Source: Candidatus Pacearchaeota archaeon | GTDB lineage: Archaea > Nanobdellota > Nanobdellia > Pacearchaeales > GW2011-AR1 | NCBI GenBank assembly: GCA_018304165.1 | Contig: JAGVWS010000033.1 | Location: forward strand, 60 to 64,059 | Direction of reading: 5' to 3' | Length of the DNA stretch: 64,000 nucleotides | In this document: positions 5,374 to 58,323 of the stretch, piece after piece | Numbering within the stretch: position 1 is the stretch's first letter | How the letters are laid out: the number at the start of each line of letters is the position of its first letter | Translations under genes and position numbers: made by a program | The notes under the pieces: generated by a model | Database searches by the model: none | Seen by the model: only the letters and a program-made list of their open reading frames with translations | Told to the model about the DNA's origin: nothing

Positions 5374-5670
5374 ATGGGTTGTTCTCTTACTACCATGCGC
5401 AAACTCACCAGTTTATACCTTATTCTGTCGCTTATAGGTATCTTAGCATTGCTTTTTATAAACAATTTTAACGCTCAGGAAATCAAAAGTATAATTATTA
5501 ATTATTCAATATCATCCATTTCAGTTATCAATTCTTCAAACAGCACTGTAATCATCTACTGCGATTCCTGCAACTTTGAGCCTTCTATAATTAATAATAA
5601 TGTCTCGGCGATTATAAGGGAATTTGACGGCTCTCTCTTTTTGGAGAAGCTGGAGGTGTTAGATGATTGA
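5374..5670 (+). CDS. Small secreted/membrane-anchored protein of unknown function
   Basis: N-terminal signal/TM segment (LTSLYLILSLIGILALLFI); Asn/Ser/Ile-rich. Confidence 0.25.
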   Translation: MGCSLTTMRKLTSLYLILSLIGILALLFINNFNAQEIKSIIINYSISSISVINSSNSTVIIYCDSCNFEPSIINNNVSAIIREFDGSLFLEKLEVLDD

Positions 5671-5766
5671 GCTATTACTGGCTTTAGTTATAGGCATTAT
5701 ACTGGAGATATCAGATGATTGGGCTATTACTGGCTTTAGTTATAGGCATTATACTGGAGGTATTGG

Positions 5767-6969
5767 ATGATTGAATTGTTTTTAGCTTTCTTTGTTGGCA
5801 TTATTATCGGAATTATTACGGGACTTATTCCGGGATTGCATATTAATCTTGTTGGAAGCATAATTCTTTCTTATCCCGTTCTTTCTTTTGCTGACGGATT
5901 GAGCATTGCGGTCTTTGTTTCCTCCCTTTCCATAACTCACACCTTTCTTGATTTGATTCCCGGAGTTTTTCTCGGCACTCCTAACGACGATAGTGGCTTA
6001 TCCGTTCTTCCGGGCCATCGCCTATTGCTCGTGGGAAGGGGCTTTGATGCTATTGTTCACGCCATGAGGGGCGGGCTTATAGGACTCATAGCATTAGTAC
6101 TACTGCTTCCGGTCATCATCTTAGTCATGCCAAAAATTTATAATTACCTGTTAAATGTCGTCTGGATAATCCTTATTCTCGCTTCTCTATATCTTATTCT
6201 TTCCCAAAGCTCTAAAGTCCTTGCCCTCTTCATATTCCTGCTCTCAGGTTTCCTTGGAGCAGGCACACTCGGTTTGTCTGTTAATCAATCTCTTCTCCCG
6301 CTTCTTTCAGGATTATTCGGGGCTTCCACTATTATCGGCAGCTTGTTGGACAGGAGCGCTATTCCAAAGCAGATTGCCAGCCATATCAATGCGTGGAAAC
6401 TGGGTTTTAAAGAATCTCTTTCCACTTTTAAAACAATTATTATTTCCTCTCCAATTCCTGCCTTCATGCCCGGAATGGGCTCCAGCCAGGCAGTGATTAT
6501 CGGCTCTTCAATGATTGACGATCATAAAAATCCTAAGGGCTTCCTCTCTTTGATTGGAGGAACTAATGTTCTTGTCATGGGCCTTTCTTTCCTTGCCGTC
6601 TTCCTCATTGGCAAGGCCAGGACTGGTTCAGCAGCGGTTATTCTTGAGGTTTTAAAAAACATCACAGCTTATCAATTAACAATTGTGCTCATCAGTGTAA
6701 TAATTGCAGGCATTATCTCCTTCGCTATAGGGATTTTCATTGCCAAGAGGCTCTCCAAGATTATCGGCAGCATTAATTACTCTTACTTATCAATTGCTAT
6801 ACTGCTAATAATTACTGCATTTGTAATTATTTTTTCAGGATTTGTGGGATTATTAGTTTTCATAACTTCCGCCTGTCTTGGTTTATTATGCATGTCTCTA
6901 GATATCAGAAGAACAACCCTCATGGGCGCTTTAATACTTCCGACGATTTGGCTGTACTGGCCGTTTTAA
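5767..6969 (+). CDS. Polytopic membrane protein, TctA/DUF112-like transporter family
   Basis: Multiple TM helices with LIPGL/LIPGVFLG motifs reminiscent of TctA-family permeases. The start region is tandemly triplicated upstream. Confidence 0.4.
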   Translation: MIELFLAFFVGIIIGIITGLIPGLHINLVGSIILSYPVLSFADGLSIAVFVSSLSITHTFLDLIPGVFLGTPNDDSGLSVLPGHRLLLVGRGFDAIVHAMRGGLIGLIALVLLLPVIILVMPKIYNYLLNVVWIILILASLYLILSQSSKVLALFIFLLSGFLGAGTLGLSVNQSLLPLLSGLFGASTIIGSLLDRSAIPKQIASHINAWKLGFKESLSTFKTIIISSPIPAFMPGMGSSQAVIIGSSMIDDHKNPKGFLSLIGGTNVLVMGLSFLAVFLIGKARTGSAAVILEVLKNITAYQLTIVLISVIIAGIISFAIGIFIAKRLSKIIGSINYSYLSIAILLIITAFVIIFSGFVGLLVFITSACLGLLCMSLDIRRTTLMGALILPTIWLYWPF

Positions 6970-7031: not shown

Positions 7032-10000
7032 TCAGAACCATTTCTTTAACTCAACCTGCTTATCCTTTTCTTTCCCAAATATGCTCTCAATATAACTCTT
7101 GGCCAAAAAAAGGCTCTGCCTGATATAGGGAGAAACATTGTACTTTGTCGCCAATTCAAGAGCCGGCTCAAGGTATTTTACAATGCTTCCATGAGAAACA
7201 GTAAATATGATCCTCCCCCCGCATTTCAGGCACTTTCCAACCAGGGGCGGCCTCCTGTAAATCTCGTTGCATCCAACGCACCTAAATGTCTGCTGTGAAA
7301 ACTTTCTTAAATTTCCCCTTATGTCTCTTATAAAGTGCCTTTCAATTATCAACCTTGCAACGTCTGATTCATCAACAGCCCTTATTTTCTTGTCTAATTC
7401 CATTTGCTTGTTTACTTTATCACGCATCGTCGGAAGGAATTTATAGGAAGAATTCAAAAGGCCCTTGTTGATATCGTCTGTTTCATGAGTATATCCTATA
7501 TTTGAAAATGCATCTTCTCCTTTTTTTAGGACATCCCTGATAGTCTTCACCTGCACTTCCGAAGAGTGTGCGCCCTTCTCTGAAAGTTCATATAACTGCA
7601 GGGGATATTCCATACCTACTTCAAAATCAAGAATCTGCTCATCAACTTCTCCTGCTCTCAGCCTGGAATTAAGGACAAGAGGCGCATCCTGCGTCCCTCC
7701 GCGATGCGCCGGAAGAAATTCTCTTGAGAAATTCAAAAGGACGTCAAGAAGCAGCATGACCGCGGCTTCATCGCCGTCGCATTGGCGTGTAAGAATTCCA
7801 TTAGCTAACACTACATGATTCTCTACATTTAAACAATAAGTTATTTGTTCCTTTTCGGCAGAAATTTCAATTATTGGATCATAAATAAAATTAGTATCTT
7901 GTTTAAGCCCCATATCCTTGCCGCCTTTTTTGTTTATATCATTGATTGCTATATCATTTATTTTAGAAAAGCTTTCCAAGAAATTAACTCTACAATTATT
8001 CCTATTAAAGAGGGGTCTTAGTCTTGGTAAAATTAAAAGATCTCCGATTTTCAGACCAGATGCAAATGCTGTTTTAATTGTATTCTCTTTAACTAAAAAT
8101 TTATGATTTTCTGTGGTAGTAATCTCTTTTCCTGTTGCAGTTTTTATTTTAATTGTTCTACTGGGAGAATGTTTAGTAAAGTTGTTAATACTAACTATTG
8201 ATAGATTATTTTCATTATCAAATCCAACAGTTTTATAATTTTCTACTTTTATCTCTTTAGTCCCATAATTATCAACAATATTTATTGGATTTAATTTTTC
8301 AACTAATTCTCCGATTTTTATATTATTCCATTGTTGACCATTATAAATTGGAAGCTTGGTATTATAATCAAAACAGTCCCTCCTCATAGCCGCATGTATA
8401 AACGGAGACGCAAGCAATCCCTGAGTCTTGCTGAATCCAATTATTCTTCCCAAAACCCCTGCGCAGTTGTGTGGAGACATGCAGGCGACCAGCTGCCCGA
8501 CAAGCTGGTCCTTCCTTTCAATATTATAAAAGGGCTTTGCTCCATACATTTTAACAAGAAGTTCGTCAATAAATCCGGCTATGTTCAGGAATACCTCTTC
8601 GGACTTCTCATCTTTTGACTCCGGACACGATGGAAGGATTATATCATGCGGTTTTATCTCCAGAATTTGCTCATCACTTGTTAATTCCTTGCCGCAAATA
8701 TCCTTTTCATAACCCATCTCCTTAAGCCTCTTGCTGCTCACTCCAATCTCTTTCGGCTTGAAGTGGGTTACTGGAAGCTCGGTAGCATCATACCTCACAG
8801 TTCCATCTTTATTCACACTAAGATTGTGCTTTGCTCTCAATATTCCTTTAGCCAGATTTTCCATAGAGTGGTTCTTATTGCTCGTTCCCCTGACTCCTTT
8901 TATTAAATGGGGGATATCCTTGCCAGACATTCCTAATTTTTTTGCTGCAGCTGCAAGATAGTTCGTGCTGTCAATTCTCCTGTTCAAATAAGAAGTAATA
9001 TTATTATGCCCTTCCTTGCCGCACTTCTTGGAGTAAATAATCTCCCTGCAGTCGCGGCAGTAATGCCTCTGCTCCGTATTTTTATCACAGCCCTCGCATC
9101 TTGCATAAATAGTATCCCTCCTGCAATTATTGCAGTAGTAAATTGGAAAATCCCCTTTTATAGTTCCTTTCTCGCTGGCCTCATTCACGCTTCTGAACCT
9201 TCCCCCCTCCTCTCCGACAGGAAAGAGAACGCTTGGGCTTCCAACCAGCTTCCTGAGCTTTGCCTTCTCTGGCCTCCCCATCCTGGCCCCTATAAAAGTC
9301 CCTGCCCTGTCTTTTATTGGCACAAATGCCAGTTTGTTAATTATATCCAAAACCTGCATGGAAGGATTTACTTTCAGCTTGAGATGTGCTATATCCTCTT
9401 TAAGAGAATATTGGTTATTTTCAAGAATATCCTGTAAAATTCCGAGATTATAAAGCAATGCCTTGCTCTCCTCTTCCTTAAGCACAACATTCTCCGTGGC
9501 AACTTCATGTGGCACGCCAAGCAATTCCAGCGCCCTCTTGCCTTCGGCAAACTGCTGTTTCTGCGGAAGGGAATAAGGAAGTATGATCTTCTTTTCTATA
9601 TAACTGTTTTCAAGCCAATAAAGCAAAGAGCAAAATAAACTGTAATCAATCTGCGTCCAATAATAAATATACTTTGGATGAAGCGGGATATTATACTCTT
9701 CACTCATCTTTGCCGCTTCATCAAAAGACACTTTGGAGGAGTCTATGTTCAGGGCAGGAACAGCTTTCTTTGCTTCAAGAGCCCACCATTCTTCGACATA
9801 CCCCTGCTTTAGAAGAGGCTGATTTCTATTCAATACATCTCCAAAAGAAAAGAGAATGTCTCCAAGATAAATAATCTCTTCAACATCCTTATAGCAGTTC
9901 TTTGCCTCTTCAATATTATTCACTCTCCTTACACTACCATTATACAATTTAACAATGGGCCCCTCAATGCTGTCGCAAACAGTAACAGCACATCCTTTAA

Positions 10001-11096
10001 TTGGCTTTTCTACTTTGAGTTGGGTTCCTATGGATATAAATCCTGCCGCAATCGCCATGGTAGCAGGATGTATTGAAGCTGCCGAAAACCCTCCAAACCG
10101 GCTCCTCCCGTACCTGAACCTAAAAGAACCTGATGCAGAAGGATGCCCGAATATCGGCCTCCCTGCAACCAGATCTTTAATATATGTGGGCGACAATTCT
10201 TTCTTTCCCTCATCTCTCTTCCTGTGAAGAGAAGTATACTCTTCAAGAAATTCCCACTCAGAAATTTTAAATCCACTCTTCTGAAGCTTTCTCAAAATCC
10301 TCAGGCCTTTCTGGGCCTTTTGCGCCAGCCCCTCTCCCAGAATCAGGCAGAAGCCACCCCTTATAAAATTAGTCTCCACTCTCTTAAGATCCTTGTAATT
10401 TGAAACTTCCCTGTCTTCTGTAGGCTCCCCGGAAACCTGGATTGGAAGATGCCTTGCCAAAAACTCCGCTTCTTCTTCAGTAGGCAGGTATTGTAAATTA
10501 GTAATCCTTTCATGATAATCATAAATCTCTGCTATTGTTCTCTTGATTTCTCTTTCTGTCGGCTTGTACTTTGCATATCCAAATGCCTCCCTGAGGTAAT
10601 CAATTAATATCAGCACTACGCAGGATGCTGTTGTTCCGGCGCTTCTTATTGGTCCTGAAAAGTAGGGCACAAAGTACTCTCCGCCGTCCTCATTCTTGTT
10701 AGTCTTTAATGCAGTATACCCCTCTATGGGGCTGCTTACCACTCCAAGCGTGCTATACGCGAAGCCTATTCTTATTCCTGCATCTATTGCTTCTAACTGG
10801 CTGCTAAAAGAACAAAATTTCTGCCTTGCGATTTCCTCAGCTATCTTAAAAGAAATTTCTGGCGCTAATTGCCCATACTCCTTCTCAAGCTCCATTATTC
10901 TGTTTACTATCTCTTGCTTGTCTATCTGGGGATAAATTGTTGAAATTAATCCAACAGCCTTAGCTGCAAGAGTAGCCGCCAGCTTAACTTCCACTTCCCC
11001 CACAGGATCATATCCTTTGGCTCTTGCTTCTCTTGCTATCTCATACAAAAGATTAACTCTGTCTTGTAACTCCGCAAAGTATTCTTCATTGCTCAT
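7032..11096 (-). CDS. polC: DNA polymerase II (PolD) large subunit DP2, containing a mini-intein
   Basis: 1354 aa with DP2 hallmark regions and Zn-finger clusters (CNNCRRD...CEGC; CVGCNEIYRRPPLVGKCLKCGG). Catalytic CDGDE motif immediately after the intein. Confidence 0.9.
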   Translation of the reverse strand: MSNEEYFAELQDRVNLLYEIAREARAKGYDPVGEVEVKLAATLAAKAVGLISTIYPQIDKQEIVNRIMELEKEYGQLAPEISFKIAEEIARQKFCSFSSQLEAIDAGIRIGFAYSTLGVVSSPIEGYTALKTNKNEDGGEYFVPYFSGPIRSAGTTASCVVLILIDYLREAFGYAKYKPTEREIKRTIAEIYDYHERITNLQYLPTEEEAEFLARHLPIQVSGEPTEDREVSNYKDLKRVETNFIRGGFCLILGEGLAQKAQKGLRILRKLQKSGFKISEWEFLEEYTSLHRKRDEGKKELSPTYIKDLVAGRPIFGHPSASGSFRFRYGRSRFGGFSAASIHPATMAIAAGFISIGTQLKVEKPIKGCAVTVCDSIEGPIVKLYNGSVRRVNNIEEAKNCYKDVEEIIYLGDILFSFGDVLNRNQPLLKQGYVEEWWALEAKKAVPALNIDSSKVSFDEAAKMSEEYNIPLHPKYIYYWTQIDYSLFCSLLYWLENSYIEKKIILPYSLPQKQQFAEGKRALELLGVPHEVATENVVLKEEESKALLYNLGILQDILENNQYSLKEDIAHLKLKVNPSMQVLDIINKLAFVPIKDRAGTFIGARMGRPEKAKLRKLVGSPSVLFPVGEEGGRFRSVNEASEKGTIKGDFPIYYCNNCRRDTIYARCEGCDKNTEQRHYCRDCREIIYSKKCGKEGHNNITSYLNRRIDSTNYLAAAAKKLGMSGKDIPHLIKGVRGTSNKNHSMENLAKGILRAKHNLSVNKDGTVRYDATELPVTHFKPKEIGVSSKRLKEMGYEKDICGKELTSDEQILEIKPHDIILPSCPESKDEKSEEVFLNIAGFIDELLVKMYGAKPFYNIERKDQLVGQLVACMSPHNCAGVLGRIIGFSKTQGLLASPFIHAAMRRDCFDYNTKLPIYNGQQWNNIKIGELVEKLNPINIVDNYGTKEIKVENYKTVGFDNENNLSIVSINNFTKHSPSRTIKIKTATGKEITTTENHKFLVKENTIKTAFASGLKIGDLLILPRLRPLFNRNNCRVNFLESFSKINDIAINDINKKGGKDMGLKQDTNFIYDPIIEISAEKEQITYCLNVENHVVLANGILTRQCDGDEAAVMLLLDVLLNFSREFLPAHRGGTQDAPLVLNSRLRAGEVDEQILDFEVGMEYPLQLYELSEKGAHSSEVQVKTIRDVLKKGEDAFSNIGYTHETDDINKGLLNSSYKFLPTMRDKVNKQMELDKKIRAVDESDVARLIIERHFIRDIRGNLRKFSQQTFRCVGCNEIYRRPPLVGKCLKCGGRIIFTVSHGSIVKYLEPALELATKYNVSPYIRQSLFLAKSYIESIFGKEKDKQVELKKWF
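7782..8375 (-). other. Mini-intein (198 aa, no homing endonuclease domain) inserted between ...HAAMRRD and CDGDEAA of DP2
   Basis: Starts with Cys (CFDYNTKL), TxxH block (TENHKFL), block F/G (YCLNVENHVVLANGILTRQ), ends in Gln followed by Cys+1. Coordinates verified codon by codon (C908=8373-8375, Q1105=7782-7784). Confidence 0.75.
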
Positions 11097-11545
11097 GTTA
11101 ATTATCAGTTAATATGGTTTAATGCCACATTTAGTTTATAACCCCATTTTGTTTATTTTTCATGTTAATTATTGGTTGGTAAGACTTTTATTTTTCATGT
11201 TAATTATTGGTTGGTAAGACTTTTATTTTATAACCATTCTTTATTTATTATCTGGGTTAATTATCAGTTAATATTCGTTAACAGCACATTTAATTTATAA
11301 CCTCATTTTATTTATTGCTCATGTTAATTATTGGTTGATAATTCTCCTCAGCAATTTATAATAATTGTTATGGTGGGTTATTGCAGATATTTATGCTATC
11401 TTTTCAGGATATATCCCATGACTTTAGTATTTCCCTATAATGTCTTGTGCTATATTATTTCCTCAATGCAGACAATAGCTTCAAAGTATATTTATTTTCT
11501 TAATGCAAACGATATTCTCAAAGCATGTTTATTAAAACAAAATTA
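11097..11545. repeat. Intergenic block of duplicated modules, including 3 extra copies of the DP2 start context (catgttaatta)
   Basis: Module gttaattatcagttaata / acatttaRtttataacc / tcatgttaattattggttgg is duplicated (11098-11230 and 11257-11345), with an internal 37-bp tandem duplicate at 11158/11195. Confidence 0.6.
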
Positions 11546-13222
11546 TCAGGCCTGGCTGAAATCAAGCACCCTCATCTTTCTTGTTTTCATATTAAACACA
11601 GGCACTTTGCAGGGGTCCGGATGATTTCCCATTTTCTCTTCAAAGGGCGTTATTGACTGCCAGCATGAAGAGGCTATCATCAAAATATTATTATAAACAT
11701 CAATATCCAATTTATGCAAATCCCCCGTAGCAACTATGTCTGGAACTGTATCAATAAACATAGGATCCCTGTCATGATGAGGGATATATGGGTTGAATGA
11801 ATGCGTTGGGGAAAGGTGCCTTCTTTTAAGAAGGTACTTTATAACTTTCGTCGGCGAATCATGAGCCCTTCCCAGCCTCAATTCATCAATTTCATTGATT
11901 ATATTATGAAAGCTCGCCCCATGATACATTAAAACTCTGAATCCTCTCTTCTCTTTGCTCCTGCCGATTCCTATTTCTACCAGAGAAGGATTGCTCACCA
12001 GTATTAAATTACTTAAGTCATATAATGCCGCCCCATAATCCCTCCCCACAGGGGGCTGCGGCTCTGCTACTCTTACCGCATCGTGCTGTCCCGGGCAGAG
12101 AATGATAGTTATATCCTTTCTTATCATCTTTAAGTATTTTGCAAGCTCTTTGTACTGCTCTTCAATATCCGGCAGCTCCAGAAGCTTTTCCTGGGCAGGA
12201 TAAACTCCCACCCCGTCAATTGTATCCCCAACTATAAACAGATATTTGACCTTCAGGGCCTCTTTTTTCTCCTCTTCCTCCCCCAGCCCTCCATTAATCC
12301 AATTTATAAATCTCAAAAGATTGTCTTTCAGAAACATCTTGCTTCCTACATGAATATCTGATATGAATGCCGCCGATTCATCTTCATCAATCTTTAATTT
12401 GTCTTCTATGAGTGAATCTGGATAAAATATATCATTAACGAAAACAAAATCCTTGTCTCCCATTCCCCTAATTCCGATAACATCATCAAGGAGGATCTCT
12501 TTAGCCAAGTTGTATAACTCCTCCTTGTTCCTGTTGACCAGCACGCTTATTTTTCCGGTGTTGTCCTCCATTTCTAAAATCATGTTCTTGTTCTTCGTTA
12601 TTCTCTTGTCATAAACCAGCCCGATAATAGAAAGTTCCTGTCTCTTAAGCCCTATTTTATTTATGGAAGTAAGGTTATTTAGTCCCTGCCTCTGCTGGAG
12701 TATGCCTTTTATTCCGTTGAATCTCGTACGAAAGTATTTTACAAAATCATCAACTTCTACCTTCTTCGCCAGCCCGCCATACACTGCCAAAACTCTTACT
12801 CTATTCAAGCTCTGCGTGTCAGATAATAACTTATCTCCCGGCGCTTCCAAGCCGGATGGTTGTTTAATTTCCCCTACACCCGCCGCCTCATCTATCTGAT
12901 TGATAATCATTTCTTTCGCCGGGCTTTCTTCGAGAATACCAATTTCCTTTCGTTCTTTAGACAATTCAATATTTATTCCCAAACTTATCCATATCTTTTC
13001 AACTGTTGTTTTTCCAACAACCATCCCAAAAGCATTCTGCAGCTGCTGGGAATTCTTCAAAAGGCTCGATTTGGTTATAACTTTCTGATTCATCCCTTCG
13101 CTAAAAGATTCTATTATCTTTTTAACGGCTTCTAAATTCCCTATTTTTTCAAGAACCTGGCATACTTCAGAATCCACCAAAACTCCTTTCTCAAGACAAA
13201 ATTTTAATATTCTTTGATCCAT
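11546..13222 (-). CDS. polB: DNA polymerase II (PolD) small subunit DP1 (calcineurin-like phosphoesterase)
   Basis: MPP-fold motifs (FLFIVGDTIDG, CPGQHD, MYHGASFH, GDLH) with N-terminal OB-like region. Immediately upstream of DP2. Confidence 0.85.
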   Translation of the reverse strand: MDQRILKFCLEKGVLVDSEVCQVLEKIGNLEAVKKIIESFSEGMNQKVITKSSLLKNSQQLQNAFGMVVGKTTVEKIWISLGINIELSKERKEIGILEESPAKEMIINQIDEAAGVGEIKQPSGLEAPGDKLLSDTQSLNRVRVLAVYGGLAKKVEVDDFVKYFRTRFNGIKGILQQRQGLNNLTSINKIGLKRQELSIIGLVYDKRITKNKNMILEMEDNTGKISVLVNRNKEELYNLAKEILLDDVIGIRGMGDKDFVFVNDIFYPDSLIEDKLKIDEDESAAFISDIHVGSKMFLKDNLLRFINWINGGLGEEEEKKEALKVKYLFIVGDTIDGVGVYPAQEKLLELPDIEEQYKELAKYLKMIRKDITIILCPGQHDAVRVAEPQPPVGRDYGAALYDLSNLILVSNPSLVEIGIGRSKEKRGFRVLMYHGASFHNIINEIDELRLGRAHDSPTKVIKYLLKRRHLSPTHSFNPYIPHHDRDPMFIDTVPDIVATGDLHKLDIDVYNNILMIASSCWQSITPFEEKMGNHPDPCKVPVFNMKTRKMRVLDFSQA

Positions 13223-13261: not shown

Positions 13262-13400
13262 TTTGTCAAAACTATAGCTGGGAACTTTAATAGCTGAACT
13301 GTTAATCATTGACTACATACTCTGGATACCTCAATAGCTGAACTGTTAATCATTGACTACATACTCTGGATACTTTAATAGCTGAACCGTTAATCATTGA
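13262..13400. repeat. 45-bp tandem repeat x about 2.7 (aatagctgaactgttaatcattgactacatactctggatac) between cdc6 and DP1
   Basis: Direct repeats seen in sequence at 13280, 13325 and 13371. Confidence 0.7.
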
Positions 13401-13509
13401 CTATTAAGTAAAGGACATGCTATTTTGGTTAATTATTTATGTCTTTCACTATATCTCAATAATTTGAATGTACCTTGCCCGTCTGAACTTTTGAATATTA
13501 AATAAAAAA

Positions 13510-14982
13510 TCAAAAGTTCAGGCTGTCTGTTATTATTTCTCTCGCTCTTGGTATTATTTGCTCTGGAATGAGAAGCTTAATCTCCCTGGTTCTTCCATAC
13601 CTTCCCTTGCTTATTACTCTTGCATTTATCAATCCAAGCATGTCAAATTCGGCTATCAGATCTCCCACCCTTCTCTGAGTAAGTATTTCGTTCCTGCTCT
13701 TCCTGCACAGTTCCTGATATAAATTGTATATGTCTCCTGTAAAAATTTTCTGGTTTTTTTGGTTCTGGGCCCGTCTTTTATTATTCATCAACTCCAGTGC
13801 AGCAAGAAGAACTATCTGAAACTGCTTAGGAGCAGAGGAGATTATATCTAATATTTTATCCTTGTCTATTTTCTCATTGGCTATATCAATATGCTTTACA
13901 TCTATTCCACTCTCTCCGGCTCTCTCTGCAATTTCTCCTGCCACTCTTAGCAAGTCTAGAGCTCTTCTTGCATCTCCATGCTCTCTCGCAGCGTACGCTG
14001 CACATTTAGCTATAACTCCCTCTCCCAAAACCCCCTGTTTAAAAGAAACATCTGCTCTTTTCTTTAGAATATCCTGCAACTGCAGGGCATTGTACGGCGG
14101 AAAAATAATTTCTTCTTCAGACAAACTGCTCCTCACTCTTGGATCAATCAAGTCCAGAAATTTTAGATCATTGCTTATCCCTACTATGCTTAATGTTGTT
14201 TTATCTAGCTCAGAATTCATTCTCGTCAGATTATATAAGAAATCACTGGATATTTTCTTGACTGCCTGGTCTATTTCATCCAATATCAGGATGAATGTTT
14301 GTTTTTCTGATTCAATAAGGTCTATAAATTTATTATAAACCTGGTCTGTTGGAAGCCCGGTAGCAGGCACTTCTCCCCCCATCTTTTTAATAAGTTCTGC
14401 AAGAATTCTATATTCCGTATCTGCAACTTTTTTCAGTTTGCAGTTTAAGTATTCTATTTTAAGGGGAATTTCTAATTTTTTAGCCTTGTTTAAAAGTTGC
14501 TCCTTCATATACTTAATGCATATAGTCTTACCGCTTCCCGTCTGCCCGTAAACAAATAAGTTGCTTGTCCTCTCCCCCCTCAAAGCAGGTGCAAGAATGC
14601 TTGCAACCTGCTCAAGCTGCTCATCTCTGTGAATTATTTCATCAGGATGATACTTTGTCTGCAAGTGGCTCTTATCTTGAAATATACTTTCCTTAGCAAA
14701 AGAATCAAAAATCCGGTCTATTTTGCTCTTCATTCCCTGATTATTAATATTATCAGAATTATTTTTTATCCCATGATTAATTAGGTTATTAGAACTATTT
14801 TCCATCTCCCAATTAGTTAGATTATTAACATTACTTTTTATTTCCTGATTAAGTATATTATTAACATTACTTTTTATCTCTGCATTATTAATTTCTCTAT
14901 TATTAATATTATTAACACCCCTCTTTACTTCCTGATTATTAATTACGCTATTATCAATATTATAAATATTATCAACACTCAT
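13510..14982 (-). CDS. cdc6: Orc1/Cdc6 replication initiator (AAA+ plus winged helix), with a repetitive Asn/Ile-rich N-terminal extension
   Basis: Walker A GQTGSGKT, Walker B ILDEID, sensor motifs, C-terminal wH. Canonical Cdc6 N-terminus begins near M84 (IFQDKSHLQTKYHPDEIIHRDEQL). Residues 1-83 are about 12-aa periodic repeats encoded by 36-bp DNA repeats. Confidence 0.9.
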   Translation of the reverse strand: MSVDNIYNIDNSVINNQEVKRGVNNINNREINNAEIKSNVNNILNQEIKSNVNNLTNWEMENSSNNLINHGIKNNSDNINNQGMKSKIDRIFDSFAKESIFQDKSHLQTKYHPDEIIHRDEQLEQVASILAPALRGERTSNLFVYGQTGSGKTICIKYMKEQLLNKAKKLEIPLKIEYLNCKLKKVADTEYRILAELIKKMGGEVPATGLPTDQVYNKFIDLIESEKQTFILILDEIDQAVKKISSDFLYNLTRMNSELDKTTLSIVGISNDLKFLDLIDPRVRSSLSEEEIIFPPYNALQLQDILKKRADVSFKQGVLGEGVIAKCAAYAAREHGDARRALDLLRVAGEIAERAGESGIDVKHIDIANEKIDKDKILDIISSAPKQFQIVLLAALELMNNKRRAQNQKNQKIFTGDIYNLYQELCRKSRNEILTQRRVGDLIAEFDMLGLINARVISKGRYGRTREIKLLIPEQIIPRAREIITDSLNF

Positions 14983-15414
14983 TTTTACCCTCTTACCTCT
15001 TTTCTTTAAAATAGATTAGATTCAACCATTTCTTCATTTTATAAAACTTTAGATACTCTATAATATGGTAACAACTTATATTTATCCTATTTATCTCACC
15101 CTTTTATCTCACTATCTCCCCTTCTTATCTCACACCTCTATTTCTTATGGAAACCATATAATAACAAAAAATTTCCTTGAAAAAAGGTATTTTTTAGTTT
15201 ATATCTGATAAAATTAAAAAATAACAGTTAACCTTTTCTTCCTGTGGAAATATTAAGCTAATATATATTCTAAGTTATATTATATTATATTATAATTATT
15301 TTAATATATATAATATATAATATAAAACTTTTTAAACAAAAAAAGAAAAAAGAAAACCAACTTTCATTTTATAAAGTTTTCTATGAGAAACAAAGGGGTC
15401 AGGGTCTATATTAC
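14983..15414. promoter_or_regulatory. Candidate replication origin (oriC): ORB-like boxes plus extreme AT tract (DUE) upstream of cdc6
   Basis: ttcCTGTGGAAATat (15237) and TGGAAACC (15145) resemble the archaeal mini-ORB core CCAGTGGAAAC. ttatctcac occurs x3 (15092-15135). A (tatat)-rich tract at 15258-15345 is a DUE candidate. Position next to cdc6 and PolD matches typical archaeal origins. Confidence 0.4.
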
Positions 15415-15798
15415 TCAATAACCTAAATTTTTAAGGTAATAAGCTGTATAAGGCGCTAAAGGATGAGGCAAATTGTTGATATCAAACCATTCTAATGCTT
15501 CACACTTATGTAGCTCCATTATCTTTGGTTCTCCTTCTGTTATTTCTGCTTCATATCCACTAAATTCTTCTTCTGCTTCTTCTATCTTCCATTTATAAAC
15601 CCCTAAATTTTTCTTCAAACTTATTATTATTCCTAACTCTTCTTTTGCCTCTCTTACTATTCCATTTTTTATTGTTTCTCCTTCTTCTATTTTTCCACCC
15701 GGGTTTGACCATTGATTATTGAAGAACTTCACATTTTTTCTCTTCATTAATAACACCTTCCCCCCACTAATTATTATGCATCCTCCTCCAATTATCAT
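15415..15798 (-). CDS. Nudix hydrolase
   Basis: Nudix box GGKIEEGETIKNGIVREAKEELGI. Confidence 0.7.
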   Translation of the reverse strand: MIIGGGCIIISGGKVLLMKRKNVKFFNNQWSNPGGKIEEGETIKNGIVREAKEELGIIISLKKNLGVYKWKIEEAEEEFSGYEAEITEGEPKIMELHKCEALEWFDINNLPHPLAPYTAYYLKNLGY

Positions 15799-15842: not shown

Positions 15843-16109
15843 TTGCTTATGGCAATTGATAAGAAGCCTTTCAGCGCTATTCTAAGCAAGCTCATAGTAA
15901 CGAAAGAGGGTAAGAGATTAGGGATGGTTAAGGATATTACATTTGAAACCAGAACAGGAGAATTAATTCATTTAGTTGTTAAAGATCCTACCCCTTACAC
16001 AAAAAACCTGAACTTGGAATCTACACAATCCAAAGAAATTCTCATACCTTATAATTCTATAATTGCTATCGGCGACTTTGTTGTTGTTTCTGAAGAAGAT
16101 TTAGTTTAA
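15843..16109 (+). CDS. PRC-barrel domain protein
   Basis: Size and pattern (GKRLGMVKDITFETRTGELIHLVV...IPYNSIIAIGDFVVV) typical of archaeal PRC barrel proteins. Confidence 0.45.
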   Translation: MLMAIDKKPFSAILSKLIVTKEGKRLGMVKDITFETRTGELIHLVVKDPTPYTKNLNLESTQSKEILIPYNSIIAIGDFVVVSEEDLV

Positions 16110-17447: not shown

Positions 17448-18404
17448 ATGGATCCTAAAATAAAAGAGGCCTTTGATAAAGTTAAAGAAGATGTTTACCT
17501 CTTGTCTAAAGAAACTTATAATGTAGGGGTATATCTAGAGTCCACAAGAACAGAAATAAGAAGAGATATAAAAGTAGAAATTTCTCAATCCATAGATATC
17601 ATAAATAATCTCTTAAATGAGAAGCTAAATACGCTTAAAATACAGATAGAGAGACTGAATGACCAAATTCTTTCAGTAATCAATATTACTACATCAACCC
17701 CAACCCCGACACCAACATCAACACAAGCCCCAATTTCCCTCCCCACCCCCACACCCCTCCTCACCCTAACTCCAACACAAGACTTCCAAAAATCAACAAC
17801 TCCAACACATAATCCAACAATCCAACAGTTTCAACAGCCCTTAAAACAGCAAAAAACAGCATTTTCCATAGGAAACGAAGGGGTTCCAACAGACAAACCA
17901 ACAGACAAACCAACAGACAAACCAACAGACAAATATGAACCCCCTTTAGTTAAAACAGCACAAATACCCTCACAAAACATAGTGCCTAAAGAACTAAGAA
18001 TAGTAGAAATAGGTACTACAACAGAAAAAACATTTAATGATATAAATAATAGCATAACTAAAAAAAGAAATGATTTTGATGAAGCCATAAAAATCCTCGA
18101 AAGTTTGGACGGAATAAAGAAAGAAATTCGCCGCAAATTCAAGCAATTGACTTCAATGGAGATGAAAGTTTTTTCCCTACTCTACTCTTTGGAGGAAAAA
18201 GGAGAACTTGTCGATTACAGGCTATTAGCCTCAAAATTAGAACTTTCGGAGAGTTCTATAAGAGATTATATTGGCAGAATTATGAATAAAGGAATCCCCA
18301 TCATTAGAGAAAGAGTAAACAATAAAAAAATCCTCCTTAAAATTTCTTTAGATCTCAAAAAAATAGCAACTCTTGACACAATACTTCAATTAAGAGGATT
18401 ATAA
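17448..18404 (+). CDS. Coiled-coil / low-complexity linker / C-terminal winged-HTH protein (paralog of 18626-19297)
   Basis: N-terminal helical region (AFDKVKEDV...), PT-rich and PTDK x4 linker, C-terminal wHTH (MEMKVFSLLYSLEEKGELVDYRLLASKLELSESSIRDYIGRIMNKG). Confidence 0.5.
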   Translation: MDPKIKEAFDKVKEDVYLLSKETYNVGVYLESTRTEIRRDIKVEISQSIDIINNLLNEKLNTLKIQIERLNDQILSVINITTSTPTPTPTSTQAPISLPTPTPLLTLTPTQDFQKSTTPTHNPTIQQFQQPLKQQKTAFSIGNEGVPTDKPTDKPTDKPTDKYEPPLVKTAQIPSQNIVPKELRIVEIGTTTEKTFNDINNSITKKRNDFDEAIKILESLDGIKKEIRRKFKQLTSMEMKVFSLLYSLEEKGELVDYRLLASKLELSESSIRDYIGRIMNKGIPIIRERVNNKKILLKISLDLKKIATLDTILQLRGL

Positions 18405-19909: not shown

Positions 19910-20044
19910 TCCTCTTGCGAAAGTTGTTTTTTGTTTTTGATTAAAACTTTTGACGCAGAAAAAGATGTGTAGGAAAAGATACGTAGAAAGGGCTTGAGCT
20001 TCATATGATGCAATGATAGCTTTTACAACAGCAAAACAACTATA

Positions 20045-20142
20045 TTAATTGAGATACATTAATTGAGATACATTAATTGAGATACATTAATTGAGATACA
20101 TTAATTGAGATACATTAATTGAGATACATTAATTGAGATACA
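20045..20142. repeat. 14-bp tandem repeat x7 (ttaattgagataca)
   Basis: Perfect tandem copies seen directly, immediately upstream of the small membrane protein gene at 20174. Confidence 0.8.
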
Positions 20143-27788: not shown

Positions 27789-28054
27789 AGTATCTCCGAT
27801 GGATTGCTATTACATATTAGAAATAAGAGATATAGAATCTATTAATTAATTTTGAAACACCAGCCATCTAGTTCTTAACGATGATAAATACTGGCAAGCC
27901 ATCTAGTTCTTAACGATGATAAATACTGGCAAGCCATCTAGTTCTTAACGATGATAAATACTGGCAAGCCATCATCCAAGTTATCCTAATCTGATTTACA
28001 ATATTAATTGAGCCCTGAATCTATTACTAAGCTATATTTGTATTGGAGATACTT
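27789..28054. mobile_element. MITE-like element carrying an internal 35-bp x3 tandem array, abutting the 3' end of tRNA-Ala
   Basis: Ends AAGTATCTCCGATGG (27789) and GTATTGGAGATACTT (28040) match the family TIR. 35-bp unit ccatctagttcttaacgatgataaatactggcaag x3 at 27864-27968. Confidence 0.55.
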
Positions 28055-41170: not shown

Positions 41171-41992
41171 ATGGAAATTTATAAAAGGCACAGGGGAAAT
41201 TTTGCAGTTGCTCTAGGAAAATTAGCCAGAGCTAAAACAAAGCAAGCCTTTGCAACACCTGCGCAGGGTATGCAGGAAAGAATGCGGCAGGGAATTGAAG
41301 CGGATATTTCTACAGAGGGAGCATGGTATAATGCAAGCTTTAATGAAGTTGGCGGAAGAATTCTCGGAACAAGGGCAGAATTTAATCCATTAATTGATTG
41401 CGCTGAACAGGCAGTAGAATCCACGAGAATAGGAGAGTTTTATTTAGAAGGAGTTTTAATTAATGGAAATCCTGCATCAGAAGTTCTTGCTGAAGCTGCG
41501 GAAAGAGATGCACAAAAACCAATTCATAAAAGACGGGTTGCAGATTTTGGGCAGATGAAGACCCATGATGTTCCGGCTGACTGCTTTGGAGATGATGATA
41601 CAATTGTATTTCTTGCAGAAAGCAAGGCAGGAGCGAATAAGTATGGGTCATGGTTGAGAAAAAATGCAGGAGTTAAGGAATCAAGAGTCCGTATGCAGGA
41701 TATAGATGGGAAGGATAAATCAAGAGGATTTTGGCTTGGCAGGCTTGCTGATGACGGCAGGTCTGATTTCTATTGCGACGACAGGTTCCTCGGCAATGGC
41801 GGCGGCTCTCTGTTTGGGGTATATGAAAGTGCCGAAGGCACACAAAAAATTTCTGAACAGCATGAACATGCTGAACAAAGAAGAATCATTTCTCCGAATT
41901 TGTCAGACATGCTTAAATATTCAAGGCCCTTTGTTCATTCAAGAGACTGGAAAGATTTTGAAAGAGGATTAAGGGCAAAATTTGAAAAGTGA
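41171..41992 (+). CDS. GC-rich (about 45-50% GC) protein of unknown function, probably horizontally acquired
   Basis: Composition clearly above the about 33% background. A decaying partial copy of its 3' part lies at 42330-42430. Confidence 0.45.
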   Translation: MEIYKRHRGNFAVALGKLARAKTKQAFATPAQGMQERMRQGIEADISTEGAWYNASFNEVGGRILGTRAEFNPLIDCAEQAVESTRIGEFYLEGVLINGNPASEVLAEAAERDAQKPIHKRRVADFGQMKTHDVPADCFGDDDTIVFLAESKAGANKYGSWLRKNAGVKESRVRMQDIDGKDKSRGFWLGRLADDGRSDFYCDDRFLGNGGGSLFGVYESAEGTQKISEQHEHAEQRRIISPNLSDMLKYSRPFVHSRDWKDFERGLRAKFEK

Positions 41993-42329
41993 TATTTTTT
42001 AAAGTATATCTCTGTCTAATTGAGTTCTGGCGCAGCCAGAACTACACGCCGGTTTACTAGGGCATATTTAACTTCATTTTACGCCATAAAATTCAGAAGC
42101 GACATTGAGTAGCGATGAAGAAACTAAGAGTGCGCAGAGCGAAACTGAGAAAACAAAAGTTTTCGAGGACTCAAGATGTCAAAATTAAAATAATTTTGAG
42201 CACATTCAAAAATTAACATTTTTGATGAGTGACCTTCTTGAAGTATGAAGCTTCAGTGTGCAGATTAAATTCTGCTCTGTACGGGCAAGATTCTCGGCAT
42301 GAAAGAAATTTCATGAGGTAAACTGGCTA

Positions 42330-42430
42330 CACTGTGTCTTGGCTCAACAGGCTTGCTGATGACAACAGGTCTGATTTCAATTGCAACAACAGGAACCTCG
42401 ACAATGACGACGGCTCTCTGTTTGGAATAG
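42330..42430 (+). pseudogene. Decaying partial duplicate of the 3' region of gene 41171-41992
   Basis: About 85% identity to 41727-41825; the differences are predominantly G-to-A (ggc to gac/aac). Confidence 0.6.
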
Positions 42431-42525: not shown

Positions 42526-43230
42526 TTACTTTTTCTTCCTTGATTTTGTTATTCTCTCCACTCTTCCATCCTTGACGTGATAGATTGTCCTTGCATGCTT
42601 CTTTGCCAGTTCAGCATCATGGGTTACCATTATTATTGTCTTTCCTTTTTTGTTTAATTCTTCCAGAAATTTCATTATTTTTTCTCCGGTCTTTGTATCA
42701 AGGTTTCCCGTAGGCTCGTCGGCCAGTATTACATCAGGATTATTAGCAAGGGCTCTTGCTATTGCAACTCTCTGCTGCTGCCCTCCGGAAAGCTGGCCGG
42801 GATAGTGGTTTGCTCTGTCAGATAATTCCACTAATTCTAGCAGCTCATCAGCCCTGGCCTCTCTTTCACTCTCATCAATGTCCTGGAAGAGCATCGGGAG
42901 CATTATGTTTTCCCTTGCTGTCAGATTCGGCACGAGATTGAACTGCTGGAAAATAAATCCTATTTTTCTCCCCCTTATCTGCGCGAGGTCTGATTCCGGA
43001 AGATGTTCTATATTGAGCCCATCAAGATAAATATCTCCCTTCGTCGCCAGGTCCAGGCTTCCTACTAAATTCATAGCACTTGATTTCCCGCTTCCGCTCG
43101 GACCCATTATCGCCACAAAATCACCCTTGTTAATTTCAAGATTAATGCCATCTATTGCTTTGACGATAGCCTCTCCCATCTCATAATACTTCGCGACGTT
43201 TTCCAGGCGGATTAATTCTCTGTTATTCAT
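42526..43230 (-). CDS. ABC transporter ATP-binding protein (MacB/LolD-like)
   Basis: Walker [10 protein letters not shown], signature [15 protein letters not shown], Walker [12 protein letters not shown]. Start set at MNNRELIRL (43228-43230) because the longer ORF to 43500 would overlap rpoN. Confidence 0.8.
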
Positions 43231-43281
43231 AAGATTATCATGAGAGGAAAGCTTTAAAAATATGCTTTTTATGAAGAATAT

Positions 43282-43479
43282 ATGATCATAGTCATCCGTT
43301 GTATGAGCTGCGGCAAACCCATTGCGCACTTGTACGAAAAGTTTAAACAGCGTACTGCCAATGGAGAATCTGCGCGGGACGTTCTTGATGATCTTGGACT
43401 CAAGAGATATTGCTGCCGCTCCGCTTTCATGGGTCAGGTTGATTTGATTGAGGAGATTTCTAAATTCAAAAAATCTTGA
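43282..43479 (+). CDS. rpoN: DNA-directed RNA polymerase subunit N (Rpb10 homolog)
   Basis: IRCMSCGKPI...LGLKRYCCR... zinc-bundle signature; 65 aa. Confidence 0.85.
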   Translation: MIIVIRCMSCGKPIAHLYEKFKQRTANGESARDVLDDLGLKRYCCRSAFMGQVDLIEEISKFKKS

Positions 43480-43584
43480 AGATTTGATTTTTTGAGCCAC
43501 GAAAATTGAAAATTTTTGATGTTTAAGAAGAGTTAAAAAATCCTTATCTGATAAGCTCCATAATCAACCTAATATGTGTAATCC

Positions 43585-43752
43585 GCTCAGATTATAATAA
43601 GTTGCATGATTTGTATTAGTGATAATTAATTCTGCAAAACGCTCAGATTATAATAAGTTGCATGATTTGTATTAGTGATAATTAATTCTGCAAAACGCTC
43701 AGATTATACTATGTTGTATGATTTGTATTAGTGATAATTAATTCTGCAAAAT
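43585..43752. repeat. 56-bp tandem repeat x3
   Basis: cgctcagattataataagttgcatgatttgtattagtgataattaattctgcaaaa repeated; third copy slightly diverged. Confidence 0.8.
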
Positions 43753-48763: not shown

Positions 48764-50218
48764 TTAATCAACAATCCTGTAACTATCAAACCTTTCCTTT
48801 AGCTTATTCCAATTCTCCGGATTCTCCCCGCTGATTATATGCTCATAAGTGCGGAGAGCCATGTCCCATGAATGGTCTGTATTGTTGTAATTAAACCTTC
48901 CCGGCCTCCCGATTGTGTACAATCCTTTTATCGAATCGCAGTAATTTAATACTGCATTTAAAGGCTCTAAAAAGCCCCTTAGATAAACAGGGTATACTCT
49001 TGGGCCTGTTTTAACAATATACTCCTGAATTTCTTTCCTGCTTTTTAATATTCCTGCTTCTTCCAGCTGCTTAAAAATTAAATCTATATTCTCCTTAGTC
49101 GGCTCTTTTGTAGTTTCAACCATCAATCCTGTTTTTCCCGGAGGACATGTCAGTTTAGAGAAAGCTTTCTGCTCGCTTACTCTTTGAAACAGGAATTCCT
49201 TTTCAGGAAAGAACACCCAGCAGTCTTCCATTGCGCGCTCTTTATTTAAAATAATGTAAATTATGCTGACAGGACGGTAAGTTAAATTAAGTGTTGCTTC
49301 TCTAGCCCTTGAATACTCTGAACCATTATCTTTAACTATGCCAAGAAGATAATCAAGGTAGATGGTAGATATAACATAGTCCGGCTTGAGCTTTACTTTC
49401 TTTATTTTTACGTAATTTATTTTTTTATCTGTTACATTAATCTCTGAAATTTCTGTTTCCAGAAGGACCTGCCCGCCATTTTTTTCTATATTCTTAACTA
49501 AGTCTTCAGCAATCTGCTTCATCCCATGGGGAGGATAATGAAAAAACTGGGCTGAAAACTTGGAGCTGTCGCCAAAAACTGCTCCTTTAATGAGTTGGAA
49601 GATGTTGGAAACTGCAACTCTTCTTATAGCAAGCTCCCTGTCAAGGTTGCCTGCTTCAGTGTTCCATACTTTTTCAGCATAGCCTTTAAAAGAAAGATTA
49701 TAAAGAGTTCTTCCAAATCTGTTTGTCAGGTAATTCTCGTAAGAATCATCTGGCCGCCTGCTTATCAATTTTCCCGCAATGTCCAGCATCGCTCTTGCGG
49801 CAATGACAGGCATCTTTGTCATTATTTGTGACATTTTAAGGGGAAATTCAAAGTAATTATTGCGCAGGTAAATTCTGTTTTTCTTTTTTACTTTAAGGAG
49901 AGGCGTAACTTTATCCATTTCTTCAAGAATTCCCTGCAGAATAGTGTATATTTTGTGCGGGCCAAAATCAAAATGAAATCCCTTGTAGTCAAAACCCCTT
50001 GCCAATCCGCCGACATAATCCTGCCTTTCAACAACGAAAACTTCATATTCTGGATTCTGCGAAAAGTAGTATCCAGCAGCAAGTCCCGCAATTCCTGCTC
50101 CAATAATAACAACTTTCTTTTTATTCTTAACAGTAGATTCTTTAGCAACCATTTTATTCTTAACAGTAGATTCTTTAGCAACCATTTTATTCTTAACAGT
50201 AGATTCTTTAGCAACCAT
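48764..50218 (-). CDS. FAD/NAD(P)-binding oxidoreductase (amine oxidase / phytoene desaturase-like) with MVAKESTVKNK x3 N-terminal repeat
   Basis: Rossmann dinucleotide motif VVIIGAGIAGLAAGYY. 33-bp tandem repeats x3 at the 5' end (50120-50218). Confidence 0.55.
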   Translation of the reverse strand: MVAKESTVKNKMVAKESTVKNKMVAKESTVKNKKKVVIIGAGIAGLAAGYYFSQNPEYEVFVVERQDYVGGLARGFDYKGFHFDFGPHKIYTILQGILEEMDKVTPLLKVKKKNRIYLRNNYFEFPLKMSQIMTKMPVIAARAMLDIAGKLISRRPDDSYENYLTNRFGRTLYNLSFKGYAEKVWNTEAGNLDRELAIRRVAVSNIFQLIKGAVFGDSSKFSAQFFHYPPHGMKQIAEDLVKNIEKNGGQVLLETEISEINVTDKKINYVKIKKVKLKPDYVISTIYLDYLLGIVKDNGSEYSRAREATLNLTYRPVSIIYIILNKERAMEDCWVFFPEKEFLFQRVSEQKAFSKLTCPPGKTGLMVETTKEPTKENIDLIFKQLEEAGILKSRKEIQEYIVKTGPRVYPVYLRGFLEPLNAVLNYCDSIKGLYTIGRPGRFNYNNTDHSWDMALRTYEHIISGENPENWNKLKERFDSYRIVD

Positions 50219-50395
50219 TATCAGAACATGAAATTCAGAGTTTATTTAAAGATTTGTTTACTTGATTGCTCAGTTGCCCAATGATTTATTATAACTTGTA
50301 CTGGCAACTATTAGCGGACCATTTCTATTATAAATTTACCAAACATCAATCAATTATTATATGCTTAACTATATTACTAAACATTAATCCAAACA

Positions 50396-55479: not shown

Positions 55480-55735
55480 ATTATTAAACTTGGTGATTGA
55501 TGCAATTTAGCACCAATAAGTTACCTTAAAACCAATAATAATTAACTGATAAGCACCAATAAGTTACCTTAAAACCAATAATAATTAACTGATAAGCTGT
55601 AAAACATTAACATAAGTTGCATGCAATTATCTGACATGTAGCTAATTAATGTTAAGAATGCCGTTTATAATGAGCATAAATGCTATTGATAATAGTTATA
55701 TCAAAACTTAGTGCGGAATTTAGCTAATCACTTAA
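55480..55735. repeat. Mosaic repeat region homologous to 24902-25235 (43-bp x2 tandem, module TTAGTGCGGAATTTAGCTAATCAC)
   Basis: Shared modules seen directly; also contains a relative of the 31-bp unit of 2699-2791. Confidence 0.55.
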
Positions 55736-56535: not shown

Positions 56536-56645
56536 AGAAATCAGGGAAGATTAATGATTGCTGCGAATATCTTTCACAGAAATCAGGGAAGATTAATATT
56601 TGCTGCGAATATCTTTCACAGAAATCAGGGAAGATTGATGCATGC
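56533..56645. repeat. 42-bp tandem repeat x about 2.7
   Basis: tcacagaaatcagggaagattaatgattgctgcgaatatctt repeated. Confidence 0.8.
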
Positions 56646-58280: not shown

Positions 58281-58323
58281 ATAAGCCGCTGCATAAATCT
58301 TTAAATATATCAAATAACAGCTC

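Follow-up and report, generated by a model that had tools for sequence, protein, structure and literature searches.

The closest described counterparts of the locus reported here are the origins of Thermococcales (Matsunaga et al. 2007, PMC1904270). In Pyrococcus, oriC lies directly upstream of cdc6, both PolD genes follow, the origin recognition boxes (ORBs) combine a TTCC...GAA core with a G-rich extension and form an inverted pair with A+T-rich DNA, and a further ORB lies within a neighbouring coding gene. Inverted ORBs also flank an A+T-rich unwinding region beside the initiator gene in Sulfolobus oriC1, Aeropyrum oriC1 and haloarchaeal oriC1, each ORB carrying a G-rich tail, the G-string (PMC4010727). 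For Pacearchaeota, our literature search found no paper describing ORBs; a recent complete-genome study, in which ORC1/Cdc6 is a single-copy core gene of the phylum, rotates genomes to ORC1 only (bioRxiv 10.64898/2026.05.13.725050). We analyzed 64 kb of contig JAGVWS010000033.1 from a Candidatus Pacearchaeota archaeon of the DPANN group (the window; both strands were searched, 128 kb in total). An earlier note on this DNA had proposed a canonical archaeal origin upstream of the initiator gene orc1/cdc6 and had suspected that 36-bp tandem repeats at the 5' end of this gene are untranslated, origin-proximal DNA. The origin proposal was borne out. The 432-bp gap upstream of cdc6 is, judging from sequence, very likely a chromosomal replication origin of the classical cdc6-adjacent type with ORBs and a DNA unwinding element (DUE), a textbook origin and a further case of a well-known kind. 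The repeats, by contrast with the suspicion voiced in that note, are read by us with good confidence as translated from the first methionine codon (M1) and not as origin DNA. The combined reading, an origin in the gap beside a cdc6 gene whose translated 5' end arose by duplication of its start region, is considered likely.

The genes and sites that define the locus are the following.

7032-11096, minus strand: DP2 of PolD, with an intein (Pfam/NCBIfam)
11546-13222, minus strand: DP1 of PolD, downstream of cdc6
13510-14982, minus strand: orc1/cdc6, 490 aa with AAA+, lid and winged-helix domains
14983-15414: gap upstream of cdc6, 432 bp, the putative origin
15091-15133, minus strand: GTGAGATAA three times, with a 21-nt tandem duplication
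15122-15155, minus strand: ORB-C, GGTTTCCATAAGAAATAGAGGTGTGAGATAAGAA, 31.4 bits
15219-15252, minus strand: ORB-B, TATTTCCACAGGAAGAAAAGGTTAACTGTTATTT, 15.0 bits
15253-15375: spacer between the inverted ORBs with the putative DUE (A+T tract at 15258-15345)
15376-15409, plus strand: ORB-A, GTTTTCTATGAGAAACAAAGGGGTCAGGGTCTAT, 15.1 bits, inverted relative to ORB-B and ORB-C

ORBs were searched with a position matrix made from 63 sites of 80 related genomes, the window being excluded, which was run over both strands of the 64 kb. The family consensus is TTTCCATARGAAAT-N3-GGTGTGRGGG, comprising TTCC and GAA core motifs and a G-rich tail. Only four sites in the window scored above 8 bits, and three of them were located inside the gap, which abuts the 5' end of cdc6. 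ORB-C, a near match to the consensus, was the top match of the window. The two ORB-like boxes singled out previously are both contained in ORBs that pass the family matrix, although their positions had to be corrected: CCTGTGGAAAT, part of ORB-B, lies at 15241-15251 and not at 15237, and TGGAAACC, part of ORB-C, at 15148-15155 and not at 15145. The third site, ORB-A, had been missed. It is directly preceded by TTTATAAAG, and its core points toward the A+T tract with the G-rich end away from it. ORB-A and ORB-B thus form an inverted pair, with the TTCC...GAAA cores facing inward to the tract and the G-rich ends facing outward. A core facing the DUE is the orientation rule derived from structural work on Sulfolobus; the match to this rule was established here by inspection only.

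The DNA enclosed by the inverted pair stands out from the remainder of the window, the G+C content of which ranges from 31 to 43% in 2-kb windows. The richest A+T stretches of 60, 80 and 100 bp were all found in the tract between and around ORB-A and ORB-B. Stability was lowest in the 80 bp at 15247-15326, with a calculated value of -69.6 kcal/mol compared with a window mean of -101.3 (standard deviation (SD) 6.9), a departure of 4.6 SD. The tract at 15258-15345 had been described as almost pure (ta)n and suitable for unwinding. Its richness in A+T and its low stability were confirmed; the label was too loose, the tract being 93% A+T and not pure (TA)n.

The same layout was recovered when cdc6 loci of 81 related genomes (Pacearchaeota, Nanoarchaeota and Woesearchaeota assemblies) were compared. 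The most widespread G+C-containing word in the 900 bp upstream of cdc6 was the core TCCATAAGAA/CCATAAGAAA, and the core TCCATAAGAAA was present upstream of cdc6 in 32 of 67 relatives versus none of 67 coding controls. Sites above 12 bits occurred over the 81 loci at 3.0/kb in these 900 bp versus 0.03/kb elsewhere, a 93-fold difference. The succession of inverted ORB, spacer and one or two direct ORBs leading up to cdc6 was found in 56 of the 66 relatives with enough upstream sequence, the inverted ORB residing 220-720 nt upstream of cdc6 in most relatives. The spacer was richer in A+T than its locus in 56 of 56 such cases (median 87% versus 68%; best 60 bp, 98%). Gene order is conserved as well: PRC-barrel gene, origin, cdc6 and DP1 follow one another among the relatives, and DP1 comes next after cdc6 in 79 of 81 loci. 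The adjacency to both PolD genes pointed out in the earlier note therefore holds, DP1 and DP2 occupying the positions listed above. In L001 (85% identical; cdc6 core 90%), the closest relative for which DNA was available, ORB-A is kept together with the cdc6 promoter block and that half of the A+T tract which adjoins ORB-A; the central part of the gap has diverged from that of the window and shows insertions and deletions. Pacearchaeota appear to possess a single initiator and a single locus of this kind. The concentration of ORBs in the gap, the inverted pair around the least stable DNA and the recurrence of the layout in 56 of 66 relatives together support the assignment as an origin.

Several observations count against this assignment. 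The scores of ORB-A and ORB-B only modestly exceed the maximum of 12.4 bits obtained in 20 block shuffles. The cumulative GC skew of the 64-kb window has no minimum at 15 kb, and the raw GC and AT skew profiles track gene strand. After strand correction by regression, the GC skew at third codon positions (GC3 skew) differed between left and right by 0.081 +/- 0.022 with the expected sign, but a change point anywhere from 10 to 53 kb fitted about equally well, over 64 kb only. Some archaea, moreover, grow without using their origin, as reported for Thermococcus (PMC5663688). An alternative is that the ORB cluster is solely an operator through which Orc1 controls cdc6 and that replication starts elsewhere or without a fixed origin. 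The lack of a localised GC-skew signal and the origin-independent growth documented in Thermococcus would fit, as would the position of the proximal ORB, which lies 25-100 nt before the cdc6 ATG in most relatives (about 25-35 nt in many) and would overlap the promoter. A mere operator leaves unexplained why 56 relatives conserve an inverted ORB at the far end of 120-220 bp with 87-98% A+T, and the architecture is that of experimentally mapped archaeal origins (PMC4010727, PMC1904270). We regard the alternative as highly improbable; because autoregulation and origin function coexist in known systems, an operator role is more an addition than an alternative to the origin. At this origin, Orc1/Cdc6 made from the adjacent gene would bind the three ORBs, and the inverted geometry of ORB-A and ORB-B would direct loading of the MCM helicase onto the unwinding element, as in the archaea studied.

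The threefold occurrence of TTATCTCAC (plus strand; GTGAGATAA on the minus strand) had been recognized before, and exactly three copies were found, beginning at 15091, 15104 and 15125; one further exact copy exists in the whole window. The first GTGAGATAA copy is the G-rich tail of ORB-C, which also includes the first TTATCTCAC, and the others come from the 21-nt tandem duplication. Before one GTGAGATAA copy, GAGATAAAAGGGTGAG (5' end at 15110, minus strand) resembles the right half of an ORB with 11.9 bits, above the 99.99th percentile of a right-half matrix. No such cluster was present in the relatives, only L069 having two copies about 70 nt apart. The triplet thus looks like a set of partial copies of the right half of ORB-C, devoid of the TTCC core and specific to this lineage. 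Another motif, TTTATAAAATGAA, occurs twice, beside ORB-A (15363-15380) and in the cdc6 promoter block (15033-15050), and both copies are kept in L001; TTTTTAAA or TTTATAAA stands directly before the inverted ORB in at least five relatives. A motif of the TTTATAAAATGAA type at the outer ORB may be a promoter, possibly transcribing away from or across the origin.

The fourth match above 8 bits lies outside the gap, and an orthologous site was detected in at least 14 relatives, about 1.8-2.8 kb upstream of cdc6.

17861-17894, plus strand: distal ORB, ATTTTCCATAGGAAACGAAGGGGTTCCAACAGAC, 20.6 bits, inside the open reading frame (ORF) at 17448-18404, about 2.5 kb from the origin
Relatives with a distal ORB: L008, L013, L015, L023, L027, L034, L035, L036, L039, L041, L044, L051, L057, L079

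The host ORF encodes a conserved uncharacterised protein of 318 aa, in which the ORB specifies FSIGNEGVPTD. Its DNA, TTTTCCAC(T/A)GGAAA(T/C)GAAGGGGTTCCAACAGAC, is almost invariant in 15 species, the proteins of which are about 33-49% identical. Particular codons are retained in 15 of 15 cases each, namely TCC for Ser (usage 10%), GGG for Gly (25%) and GAC for Asp (35%), while the codon just before the ORB is fully variable. Invariance at synonymous positions points to selection on the DNA itself, and the element is probably a distal Orc1 site. Thermococcales offer a precedent with a cluster of ORBs inside dp1 (PMC1904270). With synonymous sites frozen across species, the distal ORB is a clean candidate for an initiator site that functions away from the origin. 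Immediately after it, at 17886-17933 (plus strand), CCAACAGACAAA is repeated four times perfectly and encodes PTDK x4; a Thr/Pro-rich stretch precedes PTDK x4 in the protein.

The second question concerned the start of Cdc6. The relevant features are as follows.

13510-14733, minus strand: canonical Orc1/Cdc6 core, M84 to stop, with AAA+ ATPase, lid and winged-helix domains
14734-14982, minus strand: N-terminal extension of Cdc6, codons 1-83, made of diverged 36-nt (12-aa) and 51-nt (17-aa) tandem units
15004-15012, minus strand: cdc6 TATA box, ATTTTAAAG, 28 nt before the M1 ATG
15013-15058, minus strand: TCTAAAGTTTTATAAAATGAAGAAATGGTTGAATCTAATCT, a block that contains a second TATA-like box and is conserved in L001 (about 94% identity to the window; flanks diverged)

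The core is unremarkable. It contains the Cdc6 domains PF13191/PF13401, PF22703 and PF09079, matches TIGR02928 at 407 bits and is 62-90% identical to 81 homologues from Pacearchaeota, Nanoarchaeota and Woesearchaeota; the block means of the predicted local distance difference test (pLDDT) in the AlphaFold model were mostly 75-94 over residues 81-490. M84 had been named as the canonical N terminus, and this was corroborated by the relatives, since an ATG aligned with it within 2 codons in 79 of 81 cdc6 genes. Gene callers disagree at this point. JGI, ENA and Logan give 490 aa from M1, and NCBI gives 407 aa from M84. The cdc6 product of the window is identical to a protein that is attributed to a Candidatus Pacearchaeota archaeon by NCBI.

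Promoter positions were used to discriminate between the starts. Of 34 TTTAWA boxes upstream of genes in the window, 25 begin at positions -30 to -27 relative to the ATG, and the genome is predicted to use leaderless transcripts, with most genes being leaderless. Upstream of M1, TTTTAAAG is followed by 21 nt and the ATG, and the box and its spacing are as in the gene at 42526-43230. A promoter matrix derived from 18 other genes was scored over all 2131 ATGs. M1 reached 6.2, which placed it in the top 2.3%, while M60 and M84 received -7.5 and -4.1, respectively. The situation is the same in L001, where a TATA box is found at -30 of its own M1 (score 4.5), AGAGGCAAAA stands before the ATG, and the internal canonical ATG has a promoter score of -10.5 with nothing in front. 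GAGG at -17 and -10 before M1 could act as a Shine-Dalgarno sequence for a transcript from an upstream promoter, and the conserved block at 15013-15058 probably is such an upstream cdc6 promoter. Promoter, GAGG motif and M1 context are common to the window and L001.

These data also bear on the idea that both starts are used, so that a long form from M1 and a short form from M84 (or M60) would yield two initiator isoforms. In-frame ATGs are kept at codons 60 and 84, and AGGGA directly precedes the ATG of M84. Neither internal ATG has a TATA box at the right distance, as their matrix scores show, and the G-rich run abuts the M84 ATG, whereas most of the GAGG/GGAGG motifs listed before genes in the window are spaced 5-11 nt from the start. 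Two isoforms are considered unlikely.

The extension itself was analyzed as DNA and as protein. Tandem Repeats Finder reported a period of 36 with 4.0 copies at 14736-14880 (74% matches) and a period of 51 with 2.3 copies at 14855-14971; a separate repeat search gave five in-register copies from 14723. As a protein, it consists of six 12-residue units and one 17-residue unit rich in Asn and Ile, so the 36-bp repeats and the 12-residue periodicity described in the note are real. Asn makes up 37% of the residues, the net charge is about -3 (6 K/R versus 9 D/E), and the DNA is 78% A+T. Tryptic peptides would be GVNNINNR, EINNAEIK, SNVNNILNQEIK and NNSDNINNQGMK. The 83 codons have no stop in frame, compared with 8 and 32 in the other sense frames. 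By shuffling, such an open frame has a probability of P < 1/20000; under a neutral model that takes the repeats into account, with seven copies of one stop-free unit evolving to 29% divergence, P = 0.03-0.05. L001 has an extension of 36 codons rich in Asn, Asp and Ile that is independently open (P = 0.017). Both unit lengths, 36 and 51 nt, are multiples of three. Asn-rich extensions were confined to the window and L001 among the compared loci; a few other loci have longer open stretches before cdc6, which are not Asn-rich and look like chance.

In the reading that follows the earlier note, M84 is the start of Cdc6, and the 36-bp repeats before it are origin-proximal DNA, iteron-like or structural, that is not translated and is open by chance. 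Apart from M84 being the canonical family start and the one annotated by NCBI, this reading can draw on the divergence between units, which shows no bias for codon position, and on some resemblance to ORBs. On the ORB matrix, the units rank between the 99.5th and 99.9th percentiles, consistently in one register and on the strand of ORB-B and ORB-C; GGAAGTAAAGAGGGGT, in one unit, resembles the right half of an ORB (99.97th percentile); and the array shares 72% identity with the ORB-B region over 32 nt. The units were accordingly tried as degenerate ORBs and rejected, percentiles of only 99.5-99.97 with full, left-half and right-half matrices being a weak hint in A+T-rich DNA. In bits, every unit fell below -9 (the best at -9.4, with none reaching -6), versus 15-31 for the real ORBs. 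In addition, 79 of 81 relatives with the same origin have no such repeats, a promoter stands before M1 and none before M84 both here and in L001, the frame is open in two lineages, and the unit lengths are multiples of three. The chance that the repeats are untranslated DNA is judged to be small. M1 is favoured by the position of the promoter, its conservation in L001, the open frame and the unit lengths, and the conflict between gene callers (490 versus 407 aa) can be settled in favour of the long form.

Some findings nevertheless speak against translation from M1. Besides the NCBI annotation, which begins at M84, the divergence between units is flat over codon positions (0.28, 0.28 and 0.32), and apart from the open frame no selection on the peptide is apparent; taken by itself, the flat profile is neither for nor against coding. 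The extension was not folded confidently by AlphaFold (pLDDT 30-64; a helix at residues 17-66 had low confidence) and is probably disordered according to this model. The sole variant in repeat number, P0001, is 17 aa shorter; a single sequencing run yielded both this variant and a full-length copy, and the variant may be an assembly collapse. Two metagenome DNA scans, using patterns for the promoter block and for the cdc6 core, yielded no strain variants of the extension, and contigs with the exact Cdc6 protein were 99.9-100% identical over the region.

The origin of the repeats can be read from their register. The repeat family crosses the canonical ATG, the copy at 14723-14779 being in register with the others. 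The unit NINNQG-MKSKID aligns with NILNQE-IKSNVN and NLTNWE-MENSSN, and one upstream copy retains the ATG (M60). Because the family spans the canonical start, the tandemly duplicated unit corresponds to the six initial codons together with the 18 nt of ancestral leader before them. A recent analogue exists in the same genome. The FAD-dependent oxidoreductase gene at 48764-50218 (minus strand) begins with ATG GTT GCT AAA GAA TCT ACT GTT AAG AAT AAA three times; these 33-nt copies (50119-50219) are all perfect and encode MVAKESTVKNK x3 directly before the Rossmann motif. In the TctA gene at 5767, the Shine-Dalgarno sequence, ATG and first codons are duplicated 2.4-fold with a 52-nt period, out of frame.

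Based on these observations, the following sequence of events is proposed. The repeats would have been generated when 36 nt around the ancestral start codon were duplicated in tandem and in frame. Transcription in leaderless genes would start about 28 nt after the TATA box, and as the first copy keeps the TATA spacing, we infer that the later in-frame copies would be translated by default. The outcome would be an 83-residue Asn/Ile-rich N-terminal tail on an otherwise canonical initiator, and the most economical reading is that the tail is a tolerated by-product of tandem duplication. This would be a simple route to N-terminal tails in leaderless genes, with an old example (cdc6) and a fresh one in a single genome.

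Tandem arrays, about 20 in all, were noted across the 64 kb, and the cdc6 unit is a member of this genome-wide set. Their periods range from 10 to 56 nt, and the 2-7 copies of an array are mostly 95-100% identical. The arrays differ from each other in sequence and are mostly situated between genes or at gene ends, few being inside genes. Examples are given below.

2699-2792, 5650-5774, 11152-11229, 13289-13403, 20044-20142, 27862-27973: tandem arrays
43584-43751, 50119-50219, 55509-55597, 56531-56640, 58234-58327: further tandem arrays

Samples from one population differ in copy number: L085 has one 44-nt unit fewer between cdc6 and DP1, and the DP1-DP2 gap of L084 is 35 nt shorter, which equals one unit of the 35-nt array there. 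L001 possesses different arrays at similar places. A literature search for tandem repeats in Pacearchaeota found no paper.

On the far side of the origin, the neighbouring genes were as follows.

15415-15798, minus strand: NUDIX hydrolase gene
15843-16109, plus strand: PRC-barrel gene

The PRC-barrel gene was found in 66 relatives, in most of which it adjoins the origin and is oriented divergently from cdc6. A NUDIX gene between it and the origin was seen only in the window (15415-15798, minus strand) and in L001 (391-780), and is a lineage-specific insertion at the border of the origin. The ORFs at 16401, 16912 and 17448 matched no Pfam or NCBIfam family. Farther away, an Rfam match to the RT-16 RNA was obtained at 42025-42335 (plus strand) with 69.4 bits compared with a gathering score of 50; it covers 311 nt versus a model of 158 nt. 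A search for a reverse transcriptase among the flanking ORFs gave none; 42526-43500 encodes an ABC ATPase, and 41171-41992 has no Pfam match.

Compared with known systems, the origin shares with its Pyrococcus counterpart the position upstream of cdc6 and the PolD genes, the inverted ORBs with A+T-rich DNA and an intragenic ORB. Its ORBs resemble those bound experimentally in Pyrococcus (...TTTCATTTCCACTGGAAC..., PMC1904270), and the distal ORB of the relatives (TTTTCCACTGGAAATGAAGGGG) is nearly identical to the Pyrococcus ORB on the other strand (TTCCAGTGGAAATGAAAC..GGGG). Unlike in Pyrococcus, the centre of the intergenic ORBs is TTCCATAAGAAA and not TTCCAGTGGAAA; three predicted sites take the place of two ORBs and many mini-ORBs; and the intragenic ORB, which belongs to an uncharacterised gene and not to dp1, is on the opposite side of the origin. 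The arrangement of Sulfolobus, Aeropyrum and haloarchaeal oriC1 is shared down to the G-rich tail on each ORB, but the consensus is different. In practical terms, a sequence-defined ORB consensus and an origin layout are now available for Pacearchaeota and related Nanoarchaeota.

The tail of Cdc6 invites comparison with two other systems. Disordered regions of metazoan initiators are basic, bind DNA and are regulated by phosphorylation through cyclin-dependent kinase. The N-terminal disordered regions of metazoan Orc1, Cdc6 and Cdt1 (Parker et al. 2019, PMC6764820) are likewise low-complexity tails on an AAA+ core; unlike them, the tail described here is rich in Asn and Ile, slightly acidic, restricted to one shallow lineage and free of detectable constraint on the peptide. 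It is conceivable, if improbable, that tandem duplication is unusually active in this lineage and that the Cdc6 tail was retained as an Asn-rich self-association module. Such a module would help the initiator to assemble cooperatively, both at the origin with its few ORBs and at the distal ORB, 2.5 kb from there; if real, it would be an independently evolved archaeal counterpart of the metazoan tails. The other parallel is offered by the Asn-rich expansions of A+T-rich genomes such as that of Plasmodium (PMC7534687), where AAT-rich tandem DNA is tolerated inside essential proteins, as it would be in Cdc6. The difference is that the Plasmodium expansions are codon-level homopolymers, whereas the unit in Cdc6 is a 36-nt minisatellite from the gene's own start region.

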